Program-made: the position numbers and the translations under genes | Part shown: positions 1 through 10,288 of the stretch, piece by piece | How positions within the stretch are numbered: the stretch's first letter is position 1 | How the letters are laid out: each line of letters begins with the position of its first letter | The notes under the pieces: generated by a model | The model's input: only the letters and a program-made list of their open reading frames with translations | The model's database searches: none | Told to the model about the DNA's origin: nothing | Sequence record: PZ179885.1 | Source: a phage | DNA length: 40,778 bases | Strand: one strand, 5' to 3'

Positions 1-1767
1 ATGTCTAAGAAAACACCTGTTGAAAGACAGGCAGAAATGACCCAAAGGATGAGGGATGACTTCGTGTTCTTCATCTTCGTTCTATGGAAAGCTCTGAGCC
101 TTCCTGTTCCAACACGCTGCCAGATAGATATGTGTAAGAAGCTGGCGGCTGGAGATAATCGACGCTTCATCCTTCAAGCATTCCGTGGTATTGGAAAGTC
201 GTTCCTGACCTGTGGTTTCGTGGTCTGGAAGCTATGGAACAACCCGGACTTGAAGTTCATGATTGTGTCGGCCTCAAAGGAGCGAGCCGATGCTAACTCC
301 ATCTTCATCAAGCGAATCATCGACCTCATGCCTCAGCTTAAGGAACTCAAACCTAAGCAGGGGCAGCGAGATGCGGTTATCAGCTTCGACGTTGGACCAG
401 CCAAGCCAGACCACTCACCTTCGGTTAAGTCCGTTGGTATCACTGGTCAGTTGACTGGTAGTCGTGCTGACATCCTGATTGCCGATGACGTAGAGGTTCC
501 GAACAACTCAGCGACTCAGTCTGCACGAGACCGTCTGTCAGAGCTTGTGAAAGAGTTCGATGCTATCCTGAAGCCGGGAGGTACAATCATCTATCTGGGT
601 ACTCCTCAGAACGAGATGACCTTGTATCGTGAGCTGGAAGGCCGTGGATACACCACTACCATCTGGCCTGCTCGTTATCCACGCGACAGGAAGGACTGGC
701 AGTCTTACGGCGACCGTCTGGCACCGATGCTTCAGGCAGAGCTGGAAGAGGACCCTGAGTCCTTCTACTGGCGTCCGACCGATGAAGTACGATTTGATGA
801 TACGGACCTGAAGGAACGTGAGCTGTCCTATGGTAAAGCTGGCTTCGCTCTACAGTTCATGCTTAACCCTAACCTGAGTGATGCTGAGAAGTACCCTCTG
901 AAGCTCCGTGACCTTATCGTAGCCGACTTGGACCCAGCGTCTAGCCCAATGGTATACCAATGGCTTCCTAACCCTCAGAACAAGCGTGAGGACGTTCCTA
1001 ACGTTGGACTCATGGGTGACTCATACCACACGTATCAGACTGTAGGTTCTGCCTTCAGTTCGTACACCCAGAAGATTCTGGTCATTGACCCTAGTGGTCG
1101 TGGTAAGGATGAAACTGGTTATGCGGTACTGTACCAGCTAAACGGCTACATCTTCGCTATGGAAGTTGGCGGTATGCGAGGTGGCTATGAAGACTCTACG
1201 CTGGAAGCCTTGGCTAAGATTGGTCGTAAGTGGAAGGTCAACGAATACGTCATTGAGGGTAACTTCGGTGATGGTATGTACCTTGAGCTATTCAAGCCTG
1301 TAGCTTCCCGTATTCATCCTGCTGCTGTAACTGAAGTGAAGAGTAAGGGTCAGAAGGAACTCCGCATCTGTGACGTTCTGGAGCCTATCATGGGGTCTCA
1401 CCGACTTATCGTTAACGCTGCTGCTATCGTCCAAGATTACCAGTCTGCCTCTGATAAGGATGGTGTTCGTAATCCTATCTACTCTCTCTTCTACCAGATG
1501 ACACGTATCTCTCGTGAACGTGGAGCATTGGCACACGATGACCGACTTGATGCGCTGGCTATCGGTGTACAGTTCTTCGTTGAGTCTATGGCGAAGGATG
1601 CCAACAAAGGCGAACGTGAAGTCACTGAGGAGTGGCTGGAAGAACAGATGGAGAACCCACGGAAAGGCTTTGAGTCCATCCACACTGAGTTCTGGGACAA
1701 TGGGGTCCGGGTAACTCACGATACGGACGACGAGCTGGGGCTAGGGTCCTACGTTACGTTCCACTAG
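1..1767 (+). CDS. 19: terminase large subunit (T7 gp19-like)
   Basis: 588 aa ORF; conserved blocks [60 protein letters not shown] and [12 protein letters not shown] match my recollection of T7 gp19; RBS GGAGGG lies at the window's 3' end. Confidence 0.97.
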
Positions 1768-1861
1768 CTGAATGAATAACTATGGGTGAAAGCTGCATGA
1801 ATACGCAGTTAGTAACCTATAGTTACTACCAGTCTAACCTACTGTTTTATAAGGAGTTTGG

Positions 1862-1884
1862 ACTTAACTATCACTATAGGGAAG
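1862..1884 (+). promoter_or_regulatory. phage RNAP promoter downstream of gene 19 (phiOR-like), +1 G at 1879
   Basis: ACTTAACTATCACTATAGGGAAG matches the 11-copy promoter family in this window; same position as T7 phiOR. Confidence 0.8.
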
Positions 1885-2063
1885 ACCCCCGGTTACTTAT
1901 AGTATTACTGTAGTGAATATACATATGCAGACTTTATGCAAGACCTTAGGAGGCAGACTCCGAGTTCTTACCTAAGGCTTGCACCGATGGAAGGAGGGTG
2001 ATATTAATCATAATCCCTCCAATACAGATAGTAAAGACCATAGATACAGGAGGTATGTAGCAT

Positions 2064-2222
2064 ATGGCAAAGACCAAAGCTGTACTTAAAGCTCTGGCGA
2101 CCAATCGAGCTACATACAGGTTTCTTGCTGCTGTTCTACTTGCTGCTGGCGTTACTGCTGGAAGTAAGTGGGTCGGGTGGGTCGAGACTCTCGTATGTTC
2201 TCTGGTGTCTCAGTGTAATTAA
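2064..2222 (+). CDS. small hydrophobic protein at the gene 19.5 position
   Basis: 52 aa ORF (MAKTKAVLKALATNRATYRFLAAVLLAAGVTAGSKWVGWVETLVCSLVSQCN) with AGGAGG 8 nt upstream; below the ORF-track size cutoff; assignment is positional. Confidence 0.4.
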   Translation: MAKTKAVLKALATNRATYRFLAAVLLAAGVTAGSKWVGWVETLVCSLVSQCN

Positions 2223-2383
2223 CGCAATCATGGTAACGATTCATGAGCGGAAGACCTAAGGTCAGTACGTGGATAAAGACTCACTCTACTGACCTTAGCT
2301 ACTGTAGTCAAGGACTTTAGGTAACACCTTAATAGAAGCTCACCTAGGGTCATCCTACTTATTGGTCTATCCTAGTGTCGCCT

Positions 2384-2425
2384 GACCTACGGTCCTTGAC
2401 CTACAGTAGCTGCCACCTACGGTCA
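2384..2425. repeat. short array of CCTAC(A/G)G heptamers (right-side array, SRR-like)
   Basis: Three CCTACGG/CCTACAG copies at 2386, 2400 and 2416; T7 flanks its terminal repeat with heptamer arrays. Confidence 0.45.
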
Positions 2426-2460
2426 CTCGATGAGTTTTGGACCAAAAGTTTGAGACCACA

Positions 2461-2680
2461 TCTCACAGTTCAAGAACCTCAAGTCTCCCCATAGGCCCTC
2501 TTTCAGTCCAGACCAAAGGCCCTACCCGTTACTGCTCCTTGCAGTCACAGCCAGTCTATCATAAGGTTGGACCGATGGTCAAGACGTTAGGTCAACGATA
2601 GGTCTAGGCTATGGCTGGAGGTCAGGACAATAGGTAGGGACTATGGGTCTGTCTCTGAGTCTCTATCTGTATAACCATAG
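2461..2680. repeat. probable direct terminal repeat and genome end (concatemer junction), collapsed to one copy
   Basis: TCTCACAGTTCAAGAACCTCAAG at 2461 resembles the left-end sequences I recall for T7 (TCTCACAGTG...) and T3; it lies between the two heptamer arrays. The right boundary is approximate. Confidence 0.5.
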
Positions 2681-2681
2681 G

Positions 2682-2830
2682 TCCTACAACCTACAGTCCT
2701 ACAACCTACAGTCCTACAACCTACAGTCCTACAACCTACAGTCCTACAACCTACAGTCCTACACCTACAGTCTCACTAACCTACAGTAACAACCATAAGA
2801 CACTCACATCCTACAGTCATAGACCTACAG
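2682..2830. repeat. tandem array of TCCTACAACCTACAG (15 bp x5, then degenerate units), SRL-like
   Basis: Five perfect 15-bp units at 2682-2756 followed by degenerate units, each ending in CCTACAG; non-coding. Confidence 0.9.
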
Positions 2831-2848
2831 TTAATAGACACAAAGCTA

Positions 2849-2877
2849 TAGACTTAAAGTCTTAAACATGTTAGTCA
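2849..2877 (+). promoter_or_regulatory. candidate host sigma70 early promoter (A1-like), weak match
   Basis: TAGACT-17 bp-TAGTCA; contains GACTTAAAGTCT, which also occurs in the T7 A1 promoter; poor -10. Confidence 0.25.
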
Positions 2878-2942
2878 AAGACTATATCCTATTACACCAT
2901 GGGGCCGACGATAGCTTAATCAATATTATTTAAGATTACCTA

Positions 2943-2971
2943 TTGACTACAGGTCCAGACTATGGCTTAAT
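2943..2971 (+). promoter_or_regulatory. candidate host sigma70 early promoter (A2-like)
   Basis: TTGACT-17 bp-CTTAAT; good -35, weak -10. Confidence 0.3.
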
Positions 2972-3084
2972 AGCTTCCGTCAACACGACACGGCAACAAC
3001 CGGATAGTGAAGACGCCGGGGTCATCCCGGTTAAGTAGACAGCCTGATAAGTCATACGAACAACAGGCAGATGACAGAAAGTAG

Positions 3085-3114
3085 TTGACAAGATGTACCG
3101 ACTTAAAGTAGTAT
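3085..3114 (+). promoter_or_regulatory. host sigma70 early promoter (A3-like)
   Basis: TTGACA-18 bp-TAGTAT followed by GTACCACATCAACACGAAACAACGGTGA, closely resembling the T7 A3 promoter and its initial transcribed region as I recall them. Confidence 0.65.
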
Positions 3115-3231
3115 GTACCACATCAACACGAAACAACGGTGACGACCAACACTGAAATGGTCTACCTGAAGTCCTCTGACTGAAGGGAATGCTCTTTAAC
3201 AATCTGGATAAACTCTTAATGTGCGCCGATA

Positions 3232-3290
3232 GCGACTAACTACAGGGTCTTTGAGTCTACATCTGAAGGCCCTGACTGATAGTCACTAAC
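3232..3290 (+). promoter_or_regulatory. conserved early-region element, putative RNase III site (R0.3-like)
   Basis: Shares about 50 bp with the element at 3892-3943, including the exact 20-mer CCTGACTGATAGTCACTAAC (3271-3290); sits just upstream of gene 0.3. Confidence 0.4.
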
Positions 3291-3308
3291 AACTGAGAGG
3301 ATATAACT

Positions 3309-3812
3309 ATGGAACGTAACGCTAACGCATACTATGAGCTGCTGGCTGCAACCGTTGAGGCATTTATCGAGCGTATTCAGTACTACCACCTGACTAAAGA
3401 TGATGACTACAGCGATGCGCTGCATGAGGCCGTAGACGGTCAGGTTCCGCACTATTACCACGAGATTTTTACGGTGATGGCTGCTGATGGTATAGACCAC
3501 GAGTTCGAAGACTCTGGGCTGATGCCTGAAACCAAGGACGTAACGCGTATCCTACAAGCTCGCATCTATGAGGCACTTTATAACGACGTGTCTAATAGCT
3601 TGGATGTAGTCTGGTTTGAGGATGAAGAGGCAGACGAAGAGGATGAATATTGGGTAGTTGACGCTAAAACAGGCGCAATAATTGTGCAAGCTGTAGCTCT
3701 TGAGGTCGCTACTGCATGTGCCAAGCTCAACTATACGATAGGTCGCCACCTGAAGGTGGAAGACATCAATGATAACGTAGTGTTCGACCCTGCGGCTGAG
3801 GACTGCGAGTGA
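3309..3812 (+). CDS. 0.3: Ocr-like DNA-mimic anti-restriction protein (gene 0.3) with C-terminal extension
   Basis: Residues 1-115 align with T7 Ocr ([43 protein letters not shown] versus T7 [43 protein letters not shown]); acidic tail, then about 50 extra residues. Confidence 0.85.
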
Positions 3813-3891
3813 TAGGCGGATATATGGCTAACGTGAAGGATTCTCACATAGAGGCCATGCTTAAGTCAGCGCTTAAAGATTTAGCTTACGA

Positions 3892-3943
3892 GTGATTAAC
3901 TACAGGTCGTTAACTCATAGCGGCCTGACTGATAGTCACTAAC
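3892..3943 (+). promoter_or_regulatory. conserved early-region element, putative RNase III site (R0.5-like)
   Basis: Second copy of the element at 3232-3290, with the exact 20-mer at 3924-3943. Confidence 0.4.
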
Positions 3944-3958
3944 TATAGGATAAACAAG

Positions 3959-4483
3959 ATGAAACTGATAGGCAAGGGCGCGTTCACTAAGTGCTACCTG
4001 AAGGACTGCGGGAAGCGTGTAATTCTGGTATCTTCAGACCCAATCAAGGAGTGTATGGCGTGGGGATGGTTCCCTGAGTCTCCACTGTTCCCTGAAGTCA
4101 AAATGATTGAGGTAGGCACGTATGAGATGAACTACATGCCACCAACACGAGGTATCAAGGCGCATTTAGATGACGACCAGTGGCAACTCTATCAGGTGTT
4201 GCGAGACTGCTTCTCACGGTCCCCTGTATTCTCTAGACCTGCTGAACTGTATCACAAGTGGTACGAGATATTCCAAGCTGCACACGACAGGTCTGAGACT
4301 GAGACTGTGCGGGAAGGTCTGATGGATGTGCTGATGGCTCTGGACGCTTGCGCTAACTTCGGGTCTGATATTCAGTTTGAGATAAGCCCACGAAATGTAC
4401 GGGCTGTGAATGGTAAGCTGATACTGGTTGACTGTTTCTTCCTTGTGTCCAAGCTGCAAGAGGTGAGGTCATCAAGATGGTAA
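3959..4483 (+). CDS. 0.7: short gene 0.7-like protein kinase (kinase domain only)
   Basis: IGKGAFTKCY...KRVILV resembles T7 gp0.7 LGNGHFSAAY...NRVIKV, and NGKLILVDCFF resembles T7 NGDVPYITDPVSF; 174 aa against roughly 359 aa in T7. Confidence 0.5.
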   Translation: MKLIGKGAFTKCYLKDCGKRVILVSSDPIKECMAWGWFPESPLFPEVKMIEVGTYEMNYMPPTRGIKAHLDDDQWQLYQVLRDCFSRSPVFSRPAELYHKWYEIFQAAHDRSETETVREGLMDVLMALDACANFGSDIQFEISPRNVRAVNGKLILVDCFFLVSKLQEVRSSRW

Positions 4484-4524
4484 CTTATGGTATCTGCCAG
4501 CACCACGTCACCAACGCCCGGCTT

Positions 4525-4626
4525 ATGGTCAAGACCGGGCAGTTAAACCACGATGCGACTATGCGCTACCTGAAAGCGGTCTACGAGGGCCGCAAGCGTA
4601 TACACGACAGTTTACACGCTGAGTGA
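4525..4626 (+). CDS. small early ORF (33 aa)
   Basis: MVKTGQLNHDATMRYLKAVYEGRKRIHDSLHAE; part of a chain of coupled small ORFs; weak support. Confidence 0.2.
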   Translation: MVKTGQLNHDATMRYLKAVYEGRKRIHDSLHAE

Positions 4627-4692
4627 CAGACGAGAGGTCATCGACTGATAGGTGGCCTCAAAGATTATCACTTACATTGATAGGGGTTAACT

Positions 4693-4797
4693 ATGAGCAC
4701 TGCAATCATCTGGACTATCTCAGGCTTCGTAGCGTGGGGAATGTTTACTCTAGTCTGCAAACTACCGGTCCTTACTCAACTGTTATGGGGCTTATGA
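4693..4797 (+). CDS. small hydrophobic peptide (34 aa)
   Basis: MSTAIIWTISGFVAWGMFTLVCKLPVLTQLLWGL; AGGGG upstream; its stop overlaps the next start (ATGA). Confidence 0.3.
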   Translation: MSTAIIWTISGFVAWGMFTLVCKLPVLTQLLWGL

Positions 4798-4997
4798 CTA
4801 TGAGTATCGCACTATTGATAGCCATAGGCTATGGACTTATCGCCTACGTGCTGGTGAGAGACATCAACAAAGCGCGTAAAGTCTACAAATTAAACTATGT
4901 ACGTCTGGGTCGCTGGACTGTACGTCAACCTAACGGACGATTCATGTGCAACTTAGCGAACGTCTGGGATATAGCAACTATTGGGAGCAAACTGTAA
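4794..4997 (+). CDS. small membrane protein (67 aa)
   Basis: MTMSIALLIAIGYGLIAYVLVRD... has an N-terminal transmembrane-like helix; coupled to neighbours through ATGA and TAATG overlaps. Confidence 0.4.
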   Translation: MTMSIALLIAIGYGLIAYVLVRDINKARKVYKLNYVRLGRWTVRQPNGRFMCNLANVWDIATIGSKL

Positions 4998-5323
4998 TGA
5001 ATAAGTCATACGGGATTAATCTGGTACACTCTATGGATGCAGAAATGAACATGTTGAGCCTACTGGCTACCGGGTATCGTCACGGAACATCAAGTCACAC
5101 CGCACGTCAACAGCAGGAGCGTGACCGTGTACTTCAGGCACGACTCCGTGCCGAGGGCCATAAGTCCGAACTGATGTGTCTGGCGTATGGTGGACGACCA
5201 ATCACCGACGATGGTAAACTTTTAGTCTCAGGCTGGAAGGCGATAGACCAACGGTCAACCATCAAGCACACGACTCACGGTGACTTCAGTCATCTTCACG
5301 CTAACCCACTGATATGCAAGTAA
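4997..5323 (+). CDS. hypothetical early protein (108 aa)
   Basis: ATG at 4997 overlaps the upstream stop (TAATG); no recognisable motif. Confidence 0.5.
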   Translation: MNKSYGINLVHSMDAEMNMLSLLATGYRHGTSSHTARQQQERDRVLQARLRAEGHKSELMCLAYGGRPITDDGKLLVSGWKAIDQRSTIKHTTHGDFSHLHANPLICK

Positions 5324-5328
5324 TTATG

Positions 5329-5351
5329 ACTTAACTATCACTATAGGACTC
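5329..5351 (+). promoter_or_regulatory. phage RNAP promoter immediately upstream of gene 1, +1 G at 5346
   Basis: ACTTAACTATCACTATAGGACTC; matches the family consensus at all positions I compared. Confidence 0.75.
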
Positions 5352-5410
5352 AAGGTCTAAGACTCCAAGTGAAAGACCAAAGAGACTCTAAGTGAAAGAC
5401 TAATAACAAG
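5349..5410 (+). promoter_or_regulatory. structured leader, putative RNase III site (R1-like)
   Basis: Contains CTCAAGGTCTAAGACT and a repeated AAGTGAAAGAC; positionally equivalent to T7 R1. Confidence 0.3.
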
Positions 5411-5420
5411 GACTTTAAGT

Positions 5421-8102
5421 ATGAGCGTCATCTCTATTGACAAACACGACTTCTCTGATGTGTCGAACGCCATTGAGCCGTTTAACCTGCTGGCTGACCA
5501 CTACGGGCAAGACCTTGCAGTCAAACAGCTTCAGCTTGAGCATGAGGCATACACAGAAGGCGAGCGACGTTTCATCAAGAACCTTGAGCGCCAGACTGAG
5601 CGCGGGGAATTGGCAGACAATCAGGTCGCCAAGCCTTTGATGCAGACTCTGGTCCCTAAGATTGCGCAAGCCGTCAGGGAGTGGCACGAAGGCCTAGACG
5701 GGAAGCTGTCAACCTCGCGTCCTAGCGTAGCGTTCACCATGTTGAGCACTGAAGAGAAGGCCGTAAAGGACCGCTCTATGCGCATCTCTTGCGAGTCTGC
5801 TGCGGTCATCATACTGAAGGTCATCCTCTCCAAGCTGGTCAAGCCTGAAGGGATACCGATTACACCGATGGCATCCGCGATAGGCCGCACACTTGAGGAC
5901 GAAATCCGCTTCGGTCGCATCCGTGACAAAGAGAAGGAGCACTTCAAGAAGGCGATAGCTGAGAACCTGAACAAGCGAGCTGGGGCATCCTACAAGAAAG
6001 CCTACATGCAAGCGGTCGAGGCGTCCATGCTGGAGCAAGGCCAACTGGAAGATGCATGGGGGACTTGGAGTCCTACAGAGGCTGTCCACGTTGGCATCAA
6101 GATGCTCGAGATTGTCATCCAGTCAACACAACTGGTCGAGCTTAAGCGGTACGGTGCTGGTAATGCAGCGGCTGACGTAGAGATGGTCCACCTGTCAGAC
6201 TTCTGGGTCAAGAAGATGGCACAACGAGGATTCAGCCTTGCGGGTATCGCTCCAGTCTACCAGCCTTGCGTCGTTCCACCTAAGCAGTGGACTGGTGTTG
6301 TAGGTGGTGGGTACTGGGCCAAAGGTCGCAGACCATTACCACTGATTCGCTTAGGGTCTAAGTCTGCGGTGGCACGTTACGAAGACGTGTACATGCCTGA
6401 AGTCTATGACGCTGTGAACATCATTCAGAATACACCTTGGAAAGTGAACAAGAAGGTGCTGGACGTGGTGAACATGGTCGAGAAGCTGAACAACACGCCT
6501 ATTGACGACATCCCTCAGATGGAACCACTGAAGCCTGAGGACTATGCAGGTGAGACTGAGGAGGAACTCAAGGCATGGAAGAAGGCTGCTGCTGGTATCT
6601 ATCGACGCGAGAAGGCCCGACAGTCGCGCAGATTGTCACTGAGCTTTATCGTTAACCAAGCGAACAAGTTCTCTCAGTTCAAGGCCATCTGGTTCCCGTA
6701 CAACATGGATTGGCGAGGGCGTGTCTACGCTGTCCCGATGTTCAACCCTCAGGGTAACGACATGCAGAAGGGCCTCCTGACTCTGGCAGTCGGCAAGCCT
6801 ATTGGTGCTGACGGTTTCAAATGGCTGAAGGTCCACGGTGCAAACTGTGCGGGTGTCGATAAAGTCACCTTCGAGGAGCGTATCAAGTGGGTGGAAGACA
6901 ACCACGAAAACATCATGGCTGCTGCTAAGGCACCGATGGATAGTATTGAGTGGTGGGGCAAGTTAGACTCTCCGTTCTGTTTCCTCGCGTTCTGCTTCGA
7001 GTATGCTGGCGTAATGCACCACGGCCTGTCTTACTCCTGCTCGCTGCCGATAGCGTTCGATGGGTCCTGCTCTGGTATTCAGCACTTCAGTGCGATGCTT
7101 CGTGACCACATCGGTGGACATGCAGTAAACCTGACGCCTTCCGGTAAGGTCCAAGACATCTACCGCATCGTGTCTGACCGCATTGAGGAGGAGCTTAAAG
7201 TCCTGCTGATTAACGGTACTGACAACGAGATGGTCACTCACGAGGATAAGAAAACTGGTGAGATTACCGAACGTATCAAGCTGGGGACACGAGAGCTGGC
7301 CCGTCAGTGGCTGCAATTCGGTATGTCTCGCTCGGTCACTAAGCGCTCGGTCATGACTCTGGCCTACGGGTCGAAAGAGTATGGGTTCGCCGACCAAGTG
7401 TTCGAAGACACCGTGATGCCAGCGATTGACTCAGGGTCTGGCGCTATGTTCACTGAACCAAGCCAAGCGTCTCGCTTCATGGCAAAGATGATTTGGGAAG
7501 CTGTGAGTGTGACAGTAGTTGCTGCGGTTGACGCGATGAAGTGGCTTCAAGGCGCTGCCAAGTTGCTGGCTGCTGAAGTGAAGGACAAGAAGACTGGTGA
7601 AATCCTGAAGCCATGCCTTCCGGTACACTGGGTCACACCTGATGGGTTCCCGGTCTGGCAGGAATACCGCAAGAAGGATACCACTCGTCTGAACCTGATG
7701 TTCTTAGGGTCATTCAATCTTCAGCCTACCGTCAACAAAGGTACGAAGAAAGAGCTGGACAAGCACAAGCAGGAGTCAGGCATTAGCCCTAACTTCGTCC
7801 ACTCACAAGATGGTAGCCACCTGCGGAAGACTGTAGTCCACACTCACCGAAAGTATGGCGTGATGTCATTCGCAGTGATTCACGATAGCTTCGGGACCAT
7901 CCCGGCTGACGCTGAGTATCTGTTCCGTGGCGTCCGTGAGACGATGGTAGAGACATACCGCGATAACGATGTGCTGCTTGACTTCTACGAGCAGTTTGAA
8001 TACCAGCTTCATGAAAGTCAGCGCGACAAGTTGCCTGAGCTTCCGAAGAAAGGTAAACTGAATATCGAAGACATCTTGTCTTCAGACTTTGCATTCGCTT
8101 AA
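5421..8102 (+). CDS. 1: single-subunit DNA-directed RNA polymerase (T7 gp1-like)
   Basis: 893 aa; long collinear identity with T7/T3 RNAP, including FPYNMDWRGRVYAVPMFNPQGNDM, SPFCFLAFCFEYAG, RSVTKRSVMTLAYGSKE, HDSFGT and the C-terminal SDFAFA. Confidence 0.99.
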   Translation: MSVISIDKHDFSDVSNAIEPFNLLADHYGQDLAVKQLQLEHEAYTEGERRFIKNLERQTERGELADNQVAKPLMQTLVPKIAQAVREWHEGLDGKLSTSRPSVAFTMLSTEEKAVKDRSMRISCESAAVIILKVILSKLVKPEGIPITPMASAIGRTLEDEIRFGRIRDKEKEHFKKAIAENLNKRAGASYKKAYMQAVEASMLEQGQLEDAWGTWSPTEAVHVGIKMLEIVIQSTQLVELKRYGAGNAAADVEMVHLSDFWVKKMAQRGFSLAGIAPVYQPCVVPPKQWTGVVGGGYWAKGRRPLPLIRLGSKSAVARYEDVYMPEVYDAVNIIQNTPWKVNKKVLDVVNMVEKLNNTPIDDIPQMEPLKPEDYAGETEEELKAWKKAAAGIYRREKARQSRRLSLSFIVNQANKFSQFKAIWFPYNMDWRGRVYAVPMFNPQGNDMQKGLLTLAVGKPIGADGFKWLKVHGANCAGVDKVTFEERIKWVEDNHENIMAAAKAPMDSIEWWGKLDSPFCFLAFCFEYAGVMHHGLSYSCSLPIAFDGSCSGIQHFSAMLRDHIGGHAVNLTPSGKVQDIYRIVSDRIEEELKVLLINGTDNEMVTHEDKKTGEITERIKLGTRELARQWLQFGMSRSVTKRSVMTLAYGSKEYGFADQVFEDTVMPAIDSGSGAMFTEPSQASRFMAKMIWEAVSVTVVAAVDAMKWLQGAAKLLAAEVKDKKTGEILKPCLPVHWVTPDGFPVWQEYRKKDTTRLNLMFLGSFNLQPTVNKGTKKELDKHKQESGISPNFVHSQDGSHLRKTVVHTHRKYGVMSFAVIHDSFGTIPADAEYLFRGVRETMVETYRDNDVLLDFYEQFEYQLHESQRDKLPELPKKGKLNIEDILSSDFAFA

Positions 8103-8117
8103 CAGGAGGAGAAGTAT

Positions 8118-8348
8118 ATGTCAATGAAACTTGTAGCACACAACAGGACATACAACGATGGGTCGGGACGTTGCCATGTAGAGCTGACTTATAAGGATTT
8201 AGTCATTATCCGAGACAGATTACAAGCGGGTGTGACTGGGTGGATTCAACCTAACGAGTACAACCTTATAGCCTCGATTGATGAAGTTCTTAACGCGTGG
8301 ATGCAAGACGAGCGCACTCAGTATCCATCATTCCCTATGATTAAATAA
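8118..8348 (+). CDS. hypothetical protein (76 aa)
   Basis: AGGAGG RBS; no motif recognised. Confidence 0.6.
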   Translation: MSMKLVAHNRTYNDGSGRCHVELTYKDLVIIRDRLQAGVTGWIQPNEYNLIASIDEVLNAWMQDERTQYPSFPMIK

Positions 8349-8358
8349 GGAGAGAGTT

Positions 8359-8574
8359 ATGAAAGTTGCACACAAGCATGCTGGAGTTAAGGGCGGGACT
8401 CAAATCGTGACCGTAACAGAACACAACGGCAATGGTCTGGTGAAGACCACGGTCATTCCTACCGAAATGTCAAAGCAGCTTAACGTCCCATTCAAGACCC
8501 TCGTCTATCTTGTGGAATCCAGCCACGAGAAATACCTGAAAGACGCAGTGACCAAGCTGGAGCAGACCAAATGA
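8359..8574 (+). CDS. hypothetical protein (71 aa)
   Basis: AAGGAG RBS; no motif recognised. Confidence 0.6.
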   Translation: MKVAHKHAGVKGGTQIVTVTEHNGNGLVKTTVIPTEMSKQLNVPFKTLVYLVESSHEKYLKDAVTKLEQTK

Positions 8575-8648
8575 CAGACCTACAGTTACTGGCCTTGTGG
8601 CTGGGAGCACTCGCAGTATTCACTTTAATCCCACGCAGAAGAGGTTAA

Positions 8649-8671
8649 CCTAAACTATCACTATAGGATTA
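8649..8671 (+). promoter_or_regulatory. phage RNAP promoter (phi1.1-like), +1 G at 8666
   Basis: CCTAAACTATCACTATAGGATTA. Confidence 0.8.
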
Positions 8672-8712
8672 GACTCAAGGTCATGACTCAAAGTCGTGGC
8701 CTTCATGATTAA
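8669..8712 (+). promoter_or_regulatory. conserved intergenic element, putative RNase III site (R1.1-like)
   Basis: TTAGACTCAAGGTCAT...GTGGCCTTCATGATTAA; same element family as 16091-16133 and 40186-40230. Confidence 0.5.
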
Positions 8713-8741
8713 CCCTAACTCATTCAATCAGGAGCTACACC

Positions 8742-8921
8742 ATGTATCAGAACACTATCAACTTCGAGCGCATCCGTGAACGTCAGCAGACTGAAGATTA
8801 CATTCCGAAGGGCCGCAAGCTGAACAAGACTAAACGTGGCGGCGGTGTCAAGGGTACTTTCCGTAACGCTGAAGGCAAAGACTCTCTGGTCAACAAAGAG
8901 AAGTATTTCATAGGAGCGTAA
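8742..8921 (+). CDS. 1.1: gene 1.1-like small basic protein
   Basis: 59 aa; KGRKLNKTKR matches the T7 gp1.1 motif as I recall it; RBS GGAG. Confidence 0.6.
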   Translation: MYQNTINFERIRERQQTEDYIPKGRKLNKTKRGGGVKGTFRNAEGKDSLVNKEKYFIGA

Positions 8922-8924
8922 GCC

Positions 8925-9173
8925 ATGAGTAAACGTTGGTTATTCGACGCATCCACGAGCCAGTGGTCAGCGTTAGGCCGGACTCACCGCGAGATGAGTG
9001 AGGCAGGACTTGATGTCCTAATGGATTACTCGCCGTGCCCCGGGAAAACTCTGGTAAGAATCATTGAAGCAGACGGGAAGCCTCTGGTATCCAGCGAGTT
9101 CACCGAACACGAAATCTTTAGCTGTGAGCAATGGTGCTTGCAACAACTGAATGCTTATAGGAGCTGGAAATAA
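8925..9173 (+). CDS. 1.2: gene 1.2-like protein (possible dGTPase inhibitor)
   Basis: 82 aa, ends in WK like T7 gp1.2; assignment mainly by size and position between 1.1 and ligase. Confidence 0.55.
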   Translation: MSKRWLFDASTSQWSALGRTHREMSEAGLDVLMDYSPCPGKTLVRIIEADGKPLVSSEFTEHEIFSCEQWCLQQLNAYRSWK

Positions 9174-10288
9174 TGACTACGACTATTAAAACTAACCCGC
9201 ACCGCGCTGTAGATTACTCTGAGTCTGGAGTTAAGAAGGCACTGGATGCTGCCGGGTCGCTCGAAGCTGAAGTGAAGTATGACGGTGTGCGTATAAACAT
9301 CCCGGTCTTCCCTACTGGTGAGGCCCAATGGTTGAGCCGTGAGTCTAAACCTCTCCCAGCCCTTGAGTGGCTGTCAGTCCTTACCAACATCGACAACATC
9401 GTCGAGGACCAGCAAAAAGCTAGCGACTGGCGGTGGTTCCTGAAGCAGGCTGGCTACGAAGGCACTGGTCTGATGATTGACGGTGAGGTCATGGTAAAAG
9501 GAGTGGACTTCAATACGTCTTCAGGTCTCATCCGAACGAAGTGGGTAAAGCAAAAGAACTTTGAGTTTTCAACTGGTGAGCACTGGGGTAAGGACTGGAC
9601 GAAAGAGAAGCTACCATTCTGTCTGGACCAGAGGTTCATCAAGGTGGTCGTCTACGGTGTAGTGGACCTTAACGTCATCCTTGACCAGAAAGCTGAAGGT
9701 CCTATCCATAGCGTCACACGCCTGAAGGCCGAAGCTATCGTCCCTCTCCTCCAGAAATACTTCCCGGAAATCGACTGGGTTCTGTCTGAGTCACACACGG
9801 TCTATGACCTTGAGTCGCTCAACTCCCTGTACGAACAGAAGCGTCTGGAAGGACACGAGGGTCTGGTAGTCAAGGACCCGCTTGGTAAATACAAGCGTGG
9901 CAAGAAGTCTGGCATGTGGAAAATGAAGCCTGAGGAGACCATCGACGGGACCGTGTGTGGCCTCGTGTGGGGGACTCCGGGTAAAGCTAACGAGGGTAAG
10001 GTCATAGGATTTGAGGTGCTACTGGAAGACGGTATGGTGGTTAACGCCTGCGGTCTGACTGAAACACAGAAGGACGAGTTCACGGCTAAGGTCAATGAAG
10101 ACCCGCTTGCTGCGGGGGGCATCTTTGCTCCGTATGCCATTGGTGGTAACGAACCTTACTTCGATAACCCATACGAAGGCTGGCAGTGTGAAGTCCTATT
10201 CATGGAGCGGTTCCCAGATGGTTCACTTCGTCACCCCAGCTTCAAGTGCTGGCGTGGAACGGAAGACAATCCAACCGTTAAGAGTTAA
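9173..10288 (+). CDS. 1.3: ATP-dependent DNA ligase (gene 1.3)
   Basis: 371 aa; adenylation motif KYDGVR (EVKYDGVRINI); position after gene 1.2. Confidence 0.95.
   Translation: MTTTIKTNPHRAVDYSESGVKKALDAAGSLEAEVKYDGVRINIPVFPTGEAQWLSRESKPLPALEWLSVLTNIDNIVEDQQKASDWRWFLKQAGYEGTGLMIDGEVMVKGVDFNTSSGLIRTKWVKQKNFEFSTGEHWGKDWTKEKLPFCLDQRFIKVVVYGVVDLNVILDQKAEGPIHSVTRLKAEAIVPLLQKYFPEIDWVLSESHTVYDLESLNSLYEQKRLEGHEGLVVKDPLGKYKRGKKSGMWKMKPEETIDGTVCGLVWGTPGKANEGKVIGFEVLLEDGMVVNACGLTETQKDEFTAKVNEDPLAAGGIFAPYAIGGNEPYFDNPYEGWQCEVLFMERFPDGSLRHPSFKCWRGTEDNPTVKS

Follow-up and report, generated by a model that had tools for sequence, protein, structure and literature searches.

The four small open reading frames (ORFs) that precede the RNA polymerase gene in this phage DNA are all conserved genes under purifying selection, and the region that they form is very probably the distal portion of a class I (early) transcription unit, the Kayfunavirus counterpart of the 0.4-0.6 block of phages T7 and T3. 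A predicted RNase III site divides the block into a gp0.4-type gene on one side and, on the other, a chain of three closely spaced genes that encode two membrane proteins and a helical 108-aa protein.

More than 200 phage genomes already carry the small ORFs annotated as hypothetical proteins, and the finding, though real and sound, is accordingly known and ordinary. The same ORFs have been tabulated with their Shine-Dalgarno sequences as hypothetical proteins in the genome of phage SH4 (PMC4925675), and the names 0.4, 0.41 and 0.6 are already in use in the records of CR44b, EcoDS1 and K1F. The main value lies in the better annotation of K1F-like phages that are therapeutic candidates, in that one gene is tied to the FtsZ inhibitor gp0.4, a putative RNase III site is placed within the block, and a 34-aa membrane peptide is recognized as a real gene, with the competing 124-aa annotation shown to be wrong. 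Residual interest attaches to the 108-aa and T3-gp0.6-type proteins, conserved and uncharacterised early proteins that are worth a targeted screen, and to a variable membrane-peptide slot; none of these amounts to a new kind of system.

Genome context and limits of the early block

The window, by which we mean the whole 40,778-nucleotide stretch of record PZ179885.1 that was analysed, begins within the large terminase gene, crosses the genome ends and reaches the early region. A megablast search with positions 4400-5450 returned 204 phage records, the best of them at 93-96% identity; most of the records for which taxonomy was consulted belong to the genus Kayfunavirus (K1F-like Studiervirinae). 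These relatives, together with the terminase-to-early layout, identify the window, as judged by sequence, as a circularly permuted Kayfunavirus genome (K1F-like, T7 supergroup). The genes run in the order ocr (0.3), 174-aa gene, 49-aa gp0.4 homologue, R0.5-type site, 34-aa peptide, gp0.6 homologue, 108-aa gene, promoter and gene 1 (Table 1), and the succession of 0.3, GP04, small ORFs, gp0.6-like gene, 108-aa-like gene and RNA polymerase is kept in two distant relatives (L027 and L028).

Table 1. Features of the early block and its flanks (positions in the window)
Feature	Position	Strand	Evidence or remark
Ocr homologue (gene 0.3)	3309-3812		Pfam ocr, 1.4e-29
174-aa gene	3959-4483	+	phrog_11084 only
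49-aa gene, predicted T7 gp0.4 homologue (FtsZ inhibitor family)	4477-4626	+	Family profiles and BLASTP
Putative RNase III processing-site hairpin, T7/T3 R0.5 orthologue	4620-4674	+	Fold, sequence, covariation
34-aa hydrophobic peptide gene ('0.41' in CR44b)	4693-4797	+	Third-position substitution pattern, pN/pS
67-aa ORF (conserved start ATG 4800, 65 aa), T3 gp0.6 family	4794-4997	+	phrog_2385
108-aa gene	4997-5323	+	phrog_7066; coupled to the preceding gene by TAATG
K1F-type phage RNA polymerase promoter	5329-5351	+	About 75 nt upstream of gene 1
T7-type RNA polymerase, gene 1	5421-8102		

The 97 nt upstream of gene 1 hold a K1F-type promoter in place of the RNase III site R1, which T7 and T3 have at this spot. 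The promoter sequence, ACTATCACTATAGGA, exactly matches a motif of which the + strand of the window holds 11 copies, where chance would give 1.2 matches over both strands, and the promoter is kept at the same place before gene 1 in all relatives, the divergent ones having a variant specificity. The gene 1 leader was considered as an RNase III site in its own right and rejected, its folding being no better than that of shuffled sequences. For T7 itself, the gap between 0.7 and gene 1 had been described as holding essentially an RNase III site alone; R1 does lie there, and so does promoter C.

By analogy with T7, host RNA polymerase would read through the block from promoters at the left end of the genome, and the promoter before gene 1 probably marks the downstream end of what it transcribes; that this phage promoter comes only after the block speaks for such a reading. 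Another phage promoter is found upstream of the block at 1858-1886 (the phiOL position), from which the block could also be transcribed later in infection. A literature search for Kayfunavirus early-gene expression found none.

Four conserved and closely spaced genes

The sequence-only reading had listed ORFs of 33, 34, 67 and 108 aa; all four are present, but the first is a part of a 49-aa gene and the conserved start of the third gives 65 aa. Each ORF start has a Shine-Dalgarno motif 6-9 nt before it. The two stop-start overlaps noted before were found as described, ATGA at 4794-4797, where the 34-aa ORF ends on the next ATG, and TAATG at 4995-4999, where the end of the 67-aa ORF meets the ATG of the 108-aa ORF, and the stop-start distances of ORFs 2-4 lie between -4 and +3 nt in all relatives. 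Coupled translation by ribosomes would be expected for ORFs 2-4, the 34-aa, gp0.6-like and 108-aa genes. Conservation in related phages, on which the earlier proposal had been made to depend, is plain, with 181, 34, 242 and 224 matching records in the phage collection for ORFs 1-4, respectively, those for the second reaching down to 71% identity and those for the third extending across several genera. Selection was assessed from pN/pS, computed for the 49-aa, 65-aa and 108-aa genes with the distinct homologues of some 30 related loci and for the 34-aa ORF with four more diverged copies.

Two of the products had been called membrane-like, and their maximal 19-residue Kyte-Doolittle means (1.82 for the 34-aa and 2.35 for the 67-aa ORF) bear this out. 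The statement that none of the four was recognizable does not stand: the homology and structure searches that had been suggested supply families for ORF 1 (T7 gp0.4) and ORF 3 (T3 gp0.6), while leaving the 34-aa peptide without a family and the 108-aa protein without a match of known function. Scans of all the ORFs in question against Pfam, NCBIfam and PADLOC gave nothing significant; the Pfam set scanned was one without PF26807, and T7 gp0.4 itself gave no match to it.

An RNase III-type hairpin divides the block

The 66 nt that separate ORF 1 from ORF 2 are a conserved structured element and not a spacer. The RNA folds (-23.1 kcal/mol) into a hairpin in which an internal loop separates an upper stem of 9 bp from a lower one of 7 bp, which is the T7-type two-stem shape, and its lower stem contains the ...AE-stop codons of the 49-aa gene. 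It has in common with T7 R0.5 the sequence GCTGAGTGAyAGAC..AGGTC..GTGGCCT..GATTATCACTT, and a longer string homologous to T7 R0.5 can be traced through the hairpin as GCTGAGTGATAGAC..AAGGTC...GTGGCCTT..GATTATCACTT. In an alignment of 23 sequences, which includes a divergent Kayfunavirus subclade as well as T7 and T3, 95.2% of the cells are paired, compared with 31.6-54.3% when the pairing partners are slid; four pairs show double changes, in 15 cells, and none of 500 shuffles reached the observed value. The position of the hairpin relative to the 0.4-type gene is identical in all loci compared. Rfam, which has no model for the RNase III sites of the T7 group, holds no family matching the hairpin, and a scan of positions 1700-9500 gave no match at E<=1.

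Like R0.5 of T7 and T3, the hairpin in the window follows a 0.4-type gene and precedes a gene for a small membrane protein, is built of two stems and an internal loop, and shares long stretches of sequence with T7 R0.5; it departs from the T7 and T3 sites in its loop and in a portion of its upper stem, where the changes are compensatory. By these likenesses of structure and homology it is identified as an orthologue of R0.5 at which RNase III is predicted to cleave, and the cut would leave one mRNA for ocr, the 174-aa gene and the 49-aa gene and another that begins with the 34-aa gene. This hairpin between ORF 1 and ORFs 2-4 does not figure in the sequence-only reading.

The first ORF is a member of the gp0.4 family

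The 33-aa ORF (4525-4626) is the C-terminal part of the 49-aa gene, and ATG 4525 is internal to it. ATG 4477, where the full gene starts, overlaps the end of the 174-aa gene (ATGgTAA, with its stop codon TAA) and is preceded by the Shine-Dalgarno sequence GAGGTGAGG. All 49 residues are conserved across the 181 matching records, and the full length is kept whether the gene comes after the 174-aa gene or directly after ocr. Its pN/pS is 0.29 in the C-terminal two thirds and 0.65 in the N-terminal part, which is short and little diverged.

Assignment to the T7 gp0.4 family follows from several comparisons in agreement. The 49-aa protein matches phrog_5058 at E=2e-27 and phrog_7202, T7 gp0.4's own family, at 6e-4; reciprocally, T7 gp0.4 matches phrog_5058 at 9e-5; and BLASTP gives 37% identity to T7 gp0.4 over 41 aa. 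In one relative (L033) the homologue, 44 of whose 49 residues are identical (90%), carries a precomputed match to PF26807, Phage_T7_GP04, and the CR44b record calls the gene 0.4. As in T7 gp0.4, the protein is about 50 aa long and has a YGL motif near its N-terminus and an LK..YE...K motif, its gene starts within the last codon of the early gene before it (in K1F, gene 0.3 itself), overlapping that stop, and its own stop codon sits in the lower stem of R0.5. It departs from T7 in its identity of only about 37% and in the 174-aa gene that stands in the window between gene 0.3 and the 49-aa gene.

In K1F no such gene intervenes: gene 0.3 lies at 1114-1623 and the 49-aa gene, directly adjoining, at 1623-1772, just as 0.3 and 0.4 adjoin in T7 (925-1278 and 1278-1433). 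Given this arrangement, and a following hairpin that corresponds to R0.5, the block is positionally homologous to T7 0.4/R0.5/0.5/0.6.

K1F infection mislocalizes FtsZ and blocks cell division, effects for which gp0.4 is responsible in T7 (PMC9372555). The 49-aa protein may likewise block assembly of the FtsZ ring, a function transferred from T7 gp0.4 across an identity of only about 37%. The small genes had been proposed to be factors of host takeover or anti-defence. Takeover is a reasonable default for all of them and has specific support for the gp0.4 homologue; for anti-defence, PADLOC, Pfam and NCBIfam offer no match.

The upstream 174-aa protein: no demonstrable relationship to gp0.7

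The four ORFs had been placed in a gap between gene 0.7 and gene 1, and this placement is not supported for the window, in which the upstream 174-aa protein has no significant similarity to T7 or T3 gp0.7 and the block corresponds to the 0.4-0.6 region of T7. The 174-aa protein has no Pfam or NCBIfam match; its BLASTP comparisons with T7 gp0.7 (E=1.1) and with a Kayfunavirus kinase (E=16) are not significant, hhalign against gp0.7 kinases gives probabilities of 0.7% and 3.9%, and it falls outside the kinase family (phrog_15752 / 2828), which a true Kayfunavirus kinase matches at 4e-111. The family to which it does belong comprises 155 homologue clusters from diverse phage contigs, widespread proteins of about 170 aa with kinase-like motifs and with GxGxF, K30, E-x-S-P-R-N and D158 as invariants. 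The gene is present in only about eight of the roughly 30 related loci, with a pN/pS of 0.10.

There are two likenesses to T7 gp0.7 in this part of the window. The GxGxF and E-x-S-P-R-N...D motifs of the 174-aa protein line up, not significantly, with the kinase G-loop and catalytic region, and the 108-aa gene sits just before gene 1. For neither protein, however, did BLAST, HMM or profile-profile searches give a significant match to gp0.7, and the true gp0.7 homologues of other Kayfunaviruses, which are kinase-only proteins of 236-254 aa compared with 359 aa in T7, look quite different. On these comparisons a reading of the 174-aa gene as gene 0.7 is not supported. The arrangement claimed does exist in some Kayfunaviruses (L010, L011 and L018), where a kinase-only gp0.7 homologue lies just upstream of the same hairpin and a small membrane ORF, a gp0.6-like gene and a gene of the 108-aa type stand between this true 0.7 and gene 1.

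The gp0.6-like and 108-aa proteins

Relatives with a single ATG align the start of their third gene with ATG 4800 of the window, and ATG 4794 is found only in some relatives; ATG 4800 is 3 nt past the stop codon of the 34-aa ORF, so that coupling is tight with either start. The 67-aa protein matches phrog_2385 over residues 2-66 (E=1.1e-31), the family to which T3 gp0.6 also belongs (9e-30), and is 41% identical to T3 gp0.6 (BLASTP E=4e-10); the K1F and EcoDS1 records name the gene 0.6. It is thus assigned by homology to T3 gp0.6. The gene has a pN/pS of 0.37 in its 65-aa form, and its product has an N-terminal transmembrane helix, a basic and highly conserved C-terminal domain and a net charge of +8. 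In two relatives (L014 and L005) the gene is deleted or truncated, and it is therefore dispensable at least there.

The gp0.6 proteins of T3 and phiYeO3-12 are similarly 65 aa long, with an N-terminal transmembrane helix, a basic C-terminal domain and membership in phrog_2385, and are encoded early after R0.5. T3 differs in that 0.6 is followed by genes 0.65 and 0.7, whereas in the window the 0.6-like gene is followed by the 108-aa gene. The protein is unrelated to T7 gp0.6A, the MreB inhibitor, and a literature search on the function of T3 gp0.6 found nothing.

The 108-aa protein consists of a variable N-terminal part (residues 1-24) and a conserved core of 84 aa (residues 25-108), with pN/pS values of 0.24 and 0.21, respectively. 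The core matches phrog_7066, a Kayfunavirus early protein of 83-139 aa, at E=3.2e-46, and the range of lengths reflects variable N-terminal additions to the 84-aa core. At the C-terminus is an invariant tail, ...HTTxGDFSHL... (T-x-G-D-F-S-H-L). In the distant relatives L027 and L028 a 108-aa-like gene follows the gp0.6-like gene with a one-base overlap and precedes gene 1. An exhaustive profile search of 1.84e9 proteins yielded only 14 representatives of the family at 50% identity, most of them small and of much the same length; both of those traced to their contigs come from T7-like phages, and one match of 1594 aa is a low-complexity helical repeat. AlphaFold2 modelled the full-length protein poorly (pLDDT 63.6); the 84-aa core alone, run on an alignment of greater diversity, gave an acceptable model of three helices (pLDDT 79.7), the invariant tail being modelled poorly. 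The protein is placed by its profile in a small family specific to T7-like phages and is predicted to be helical; comparisons by sequence and by fold found nothing of known function that resembles it. Two candidate relationships were rejected, that with T3 gp0.65, for which the comparison failed, and that with the shut-off (C-terminal) domain of gp0.7, for which hmmsearch gave E=16 (T7) and 39 (T3) and hhalign a probability of 0.3%.

Possible roles of the distal genes

We suggest that the products of the three distal genes, two of them membrane proteins, would be non-enzymatic host-takeover factors that bind host components, the 108-aa protein most likely using its invariant and predicted-flexible C-terminal tail as a binding peptide.

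It is conceivable, if rather doubtful, that the block is instead an anti-defence cassette, in which at least one of the 34-aa, gp0.6-like and 108-aa proteins inhibits host immunity, as Ocr does, and not a housekeeping target. The block belongs to the part of the genome that is expressed first and stands next to ocr; the region is mosaic, with alternative small membrane ORFs, variable N-termini of the 108-aa protein and genes inserted between conserved ones; and the neighbouring slot of some relatives holds a kinase of the T7 gp0.7 family, the T7 kinase having been reported to disarm defence systems (PMC13645617). Against this, none of the proteins resembles any PADLOC, Pfam or NCBIfam model, and the gp0.6-like and 108-aa cores occur almost throughout the genus in strongly conserved form, to judge from the numbers of records given above, a pattern better suited to a conserved target than to an accessory gene in an arms race.

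Regulation of phage or host transcription by the 108-aa protein, as a stand-alone equivalent of the gp0.7 shut-off domain or as a partner of the phage RNA polymerase, is improbable. Its gene always lies directly upstream of the gene 1 promoter, the protein is basic and helical, and the Kayfunavirus gp0.7 homologues are kinase-only; but the family profile finds no match to the C-terminal domains of T7 or T3 gp0.7, no fold match to proteins that bind DNA or RNA polymerase was obtained, and the tail stays invariant among phages whose adjacent polymerases differ in promoter specificity.

Returning to host takeover, a bolder form of the proposal can be put forward tentatively. The 108-aa protein, possibly together with the coupled gp0.6-like protein, might be an undescribed early factor of host takeover or anti-defence, its three-helix module presenting the invariant T-x-G-D-F-S-H-L tail to what could be a conserved enterobacterial target; and, separately, the slot after R0.5 might be an exchange hotspot, at which T7-like phages could swap unrelated small membrane peptides with roles in exclusion or counter-defence.

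The 34-aa peptide and its variable slot

In comparisons of the 34-aa ORF with four more diverged copies, third codon positions account for 9-19 of 11-33 substitutions, and the pN/pS in frame is 0.14-0.23 in these relatives; the other frames have stops and pN>pS. It is most unlikely that the ORFs are annotation artefacts, whether through a 34-aa ORF that is non-coding, the real gene being a GTG-initiated 124-aa ORF (4623-4997) of the kind annotated in the GenBank records of U8 and LM33_P1, or through a 33/49-aa ORF that arose by chance, for although the 34-aa ORF has no PHROG family, its own frame shows change dominated by third positions, the upstream part of the 124-aa frame has stops in relatives and pN>pS, the first 50 nt or so of that frame are the RNase III-type hairpin, and the 49-aa ORF is conserved at full length and belongs to the gp0.4 family. 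The third-position pattern of the 34-aa frame, together with the stops and the pN>pS of the GTG-extended frame, which was rejected, therefore establishes the 34-aa ORF as a genuine gene for a small membrane peptide and shows the annotation of a 124-aa gene to be an error.

The peptide has no PHROG or Pfam match and no BLAST match to T7 gp0.5, and it falls outside the T7 gp0.5 family (phrog_16572), with which it has only position and hydrophobicity in common. Like T7 gp0.5 it is small, very hydrophobic and encoded directly after R0.5; unlike gp0.5, with which it shares no detectable similarity, it belongs to a set of at least four unrelated peptides that occupy this slot in one phage or another. 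The slot, directly after the RNase III-type site and at the position of T7 gene 0.5, thus holds different small membrane peptides among relatives, where a 29-aa ORF, a 55-aa ORF (K1F) or a T7-0.5-like 45-aa membrane ORF may stand instead behind the same Shine-Dalgarno sequence, sometimes two in tandem. The T7 gp0.5-like peptide of 45 aa occupies the slot in the distant relative L027.

Gene expression and content upstream of the polymerase gene

At the spot where T7 and T3 carry the RNase III site R1, the window and its relatives have instead a phage-RNA-polymerase promoter, which is kept in all of the relatives compared (loci L001-L031). In the divergent relatives this promoter varies in step with the type of their other promoters (e.g. 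AAACCCTCACTATAGGA and AACTATCACTAAAGGA). The location of a phage promoter so close upstream of the phage's own polymerase gene implies that this gene would be under positive autoregulation.

The genes further upstream vary among the relatives. In several of them an ORF of 140-144 aa sits exactly at the junction of the gp0.6-like and 108-aa-type genes, and from its Cys- and His-rich motifs it looks like a putative HNH-type homing endonuclease; L014 has lost its gp0.6-like gene, and of this ORF it retains just the C-terminal end (...KYLQENQ). In the interval from the gp0.4 homologue to the RNase III site, an additional 41-aa ORF (MYQITYSSEQAFYDGCYEMMKRGACYVANHHSLTITLTGGY, phrog_33188) is found in many relatives, in some of them accompanied by a 75-aa or a 115-aa gene; loci with such extra genes are L004, L006-L009, L012, L015, L023, L029, L030 and L032. 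The window contains none of these three.

Coordinates of features in the window and related loci
Feature	Location	Remarks
Phage-RNA-polymerase promoter	window 5329-5351	~75 nt 5' of polymerase gene; same place in L001-L031
140-144-aa ORF	L008 2573-2998; L016 2576-2998; L017 2618-3052; L020 2576-2998	
Remnant of 140-144-aa ORF	L014 ~1525-1551	
108-aa-type homologue	K1F (L003, NC_007456) 2208-2468	
Misannotated features	L001 2777-3151; L002 1121-1624 and 2127-2501; several RefSeq records	
174-aa protein	window 3959-4483	
Candidate 28-aa ORF	window 3809-3895	GTG start; overlaps ocr stop codon
Counterpart of 28-aa ORF	L023 1125-1205	upstream of L023 ocr
15-bp tandem repeat	window 2681-2787	7 copies

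Annotation of related genomes

The 108-aa-type gene is absent from the K1F annotation, but a homologue is present, reading MKTVYINRPSIR and then a stop. Relative to close relatives it has two mutually compensating one-base indels, and it is a pseudogene unless the 2005 record contains a sequencing error. The 124-aa GTG ORF annotated in public records, which takes in the RNase III hairpin as well as the 34-aa gene, is an annotation error; the ocr gene of LM33_P1 is mislabelled 'Phage protein kinase', and 'N4-like RNA polymerase' is a wrong label on T7-type RNA polymerases in public records.

The 174-aa protein and the left end

The 174-aa protein is a member of a widespread family with 155 clusters on phage contigs of 40-100 kb; the motifs invariant in this family, K-x-I-G-x-G-x-F, K30, F-E-I-S-P-R-N and L-D-C-F, resemble a minimal protein-kinase core. 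One member is labelled Ser/Thr kinase in one UniRef entry, and profile comparison of the family with the T7 kinase was not significant (probability 3.9%).

Among the related loci, a translated stretch similar to the candidate 28-aa ORF (81% identity) was found in L023 only, where it is placed differently. The tandem repeat, with the unit GTCCTACAACCTACA, lies in non-coding left-end DNA that separates the terminal area from the early promoters.
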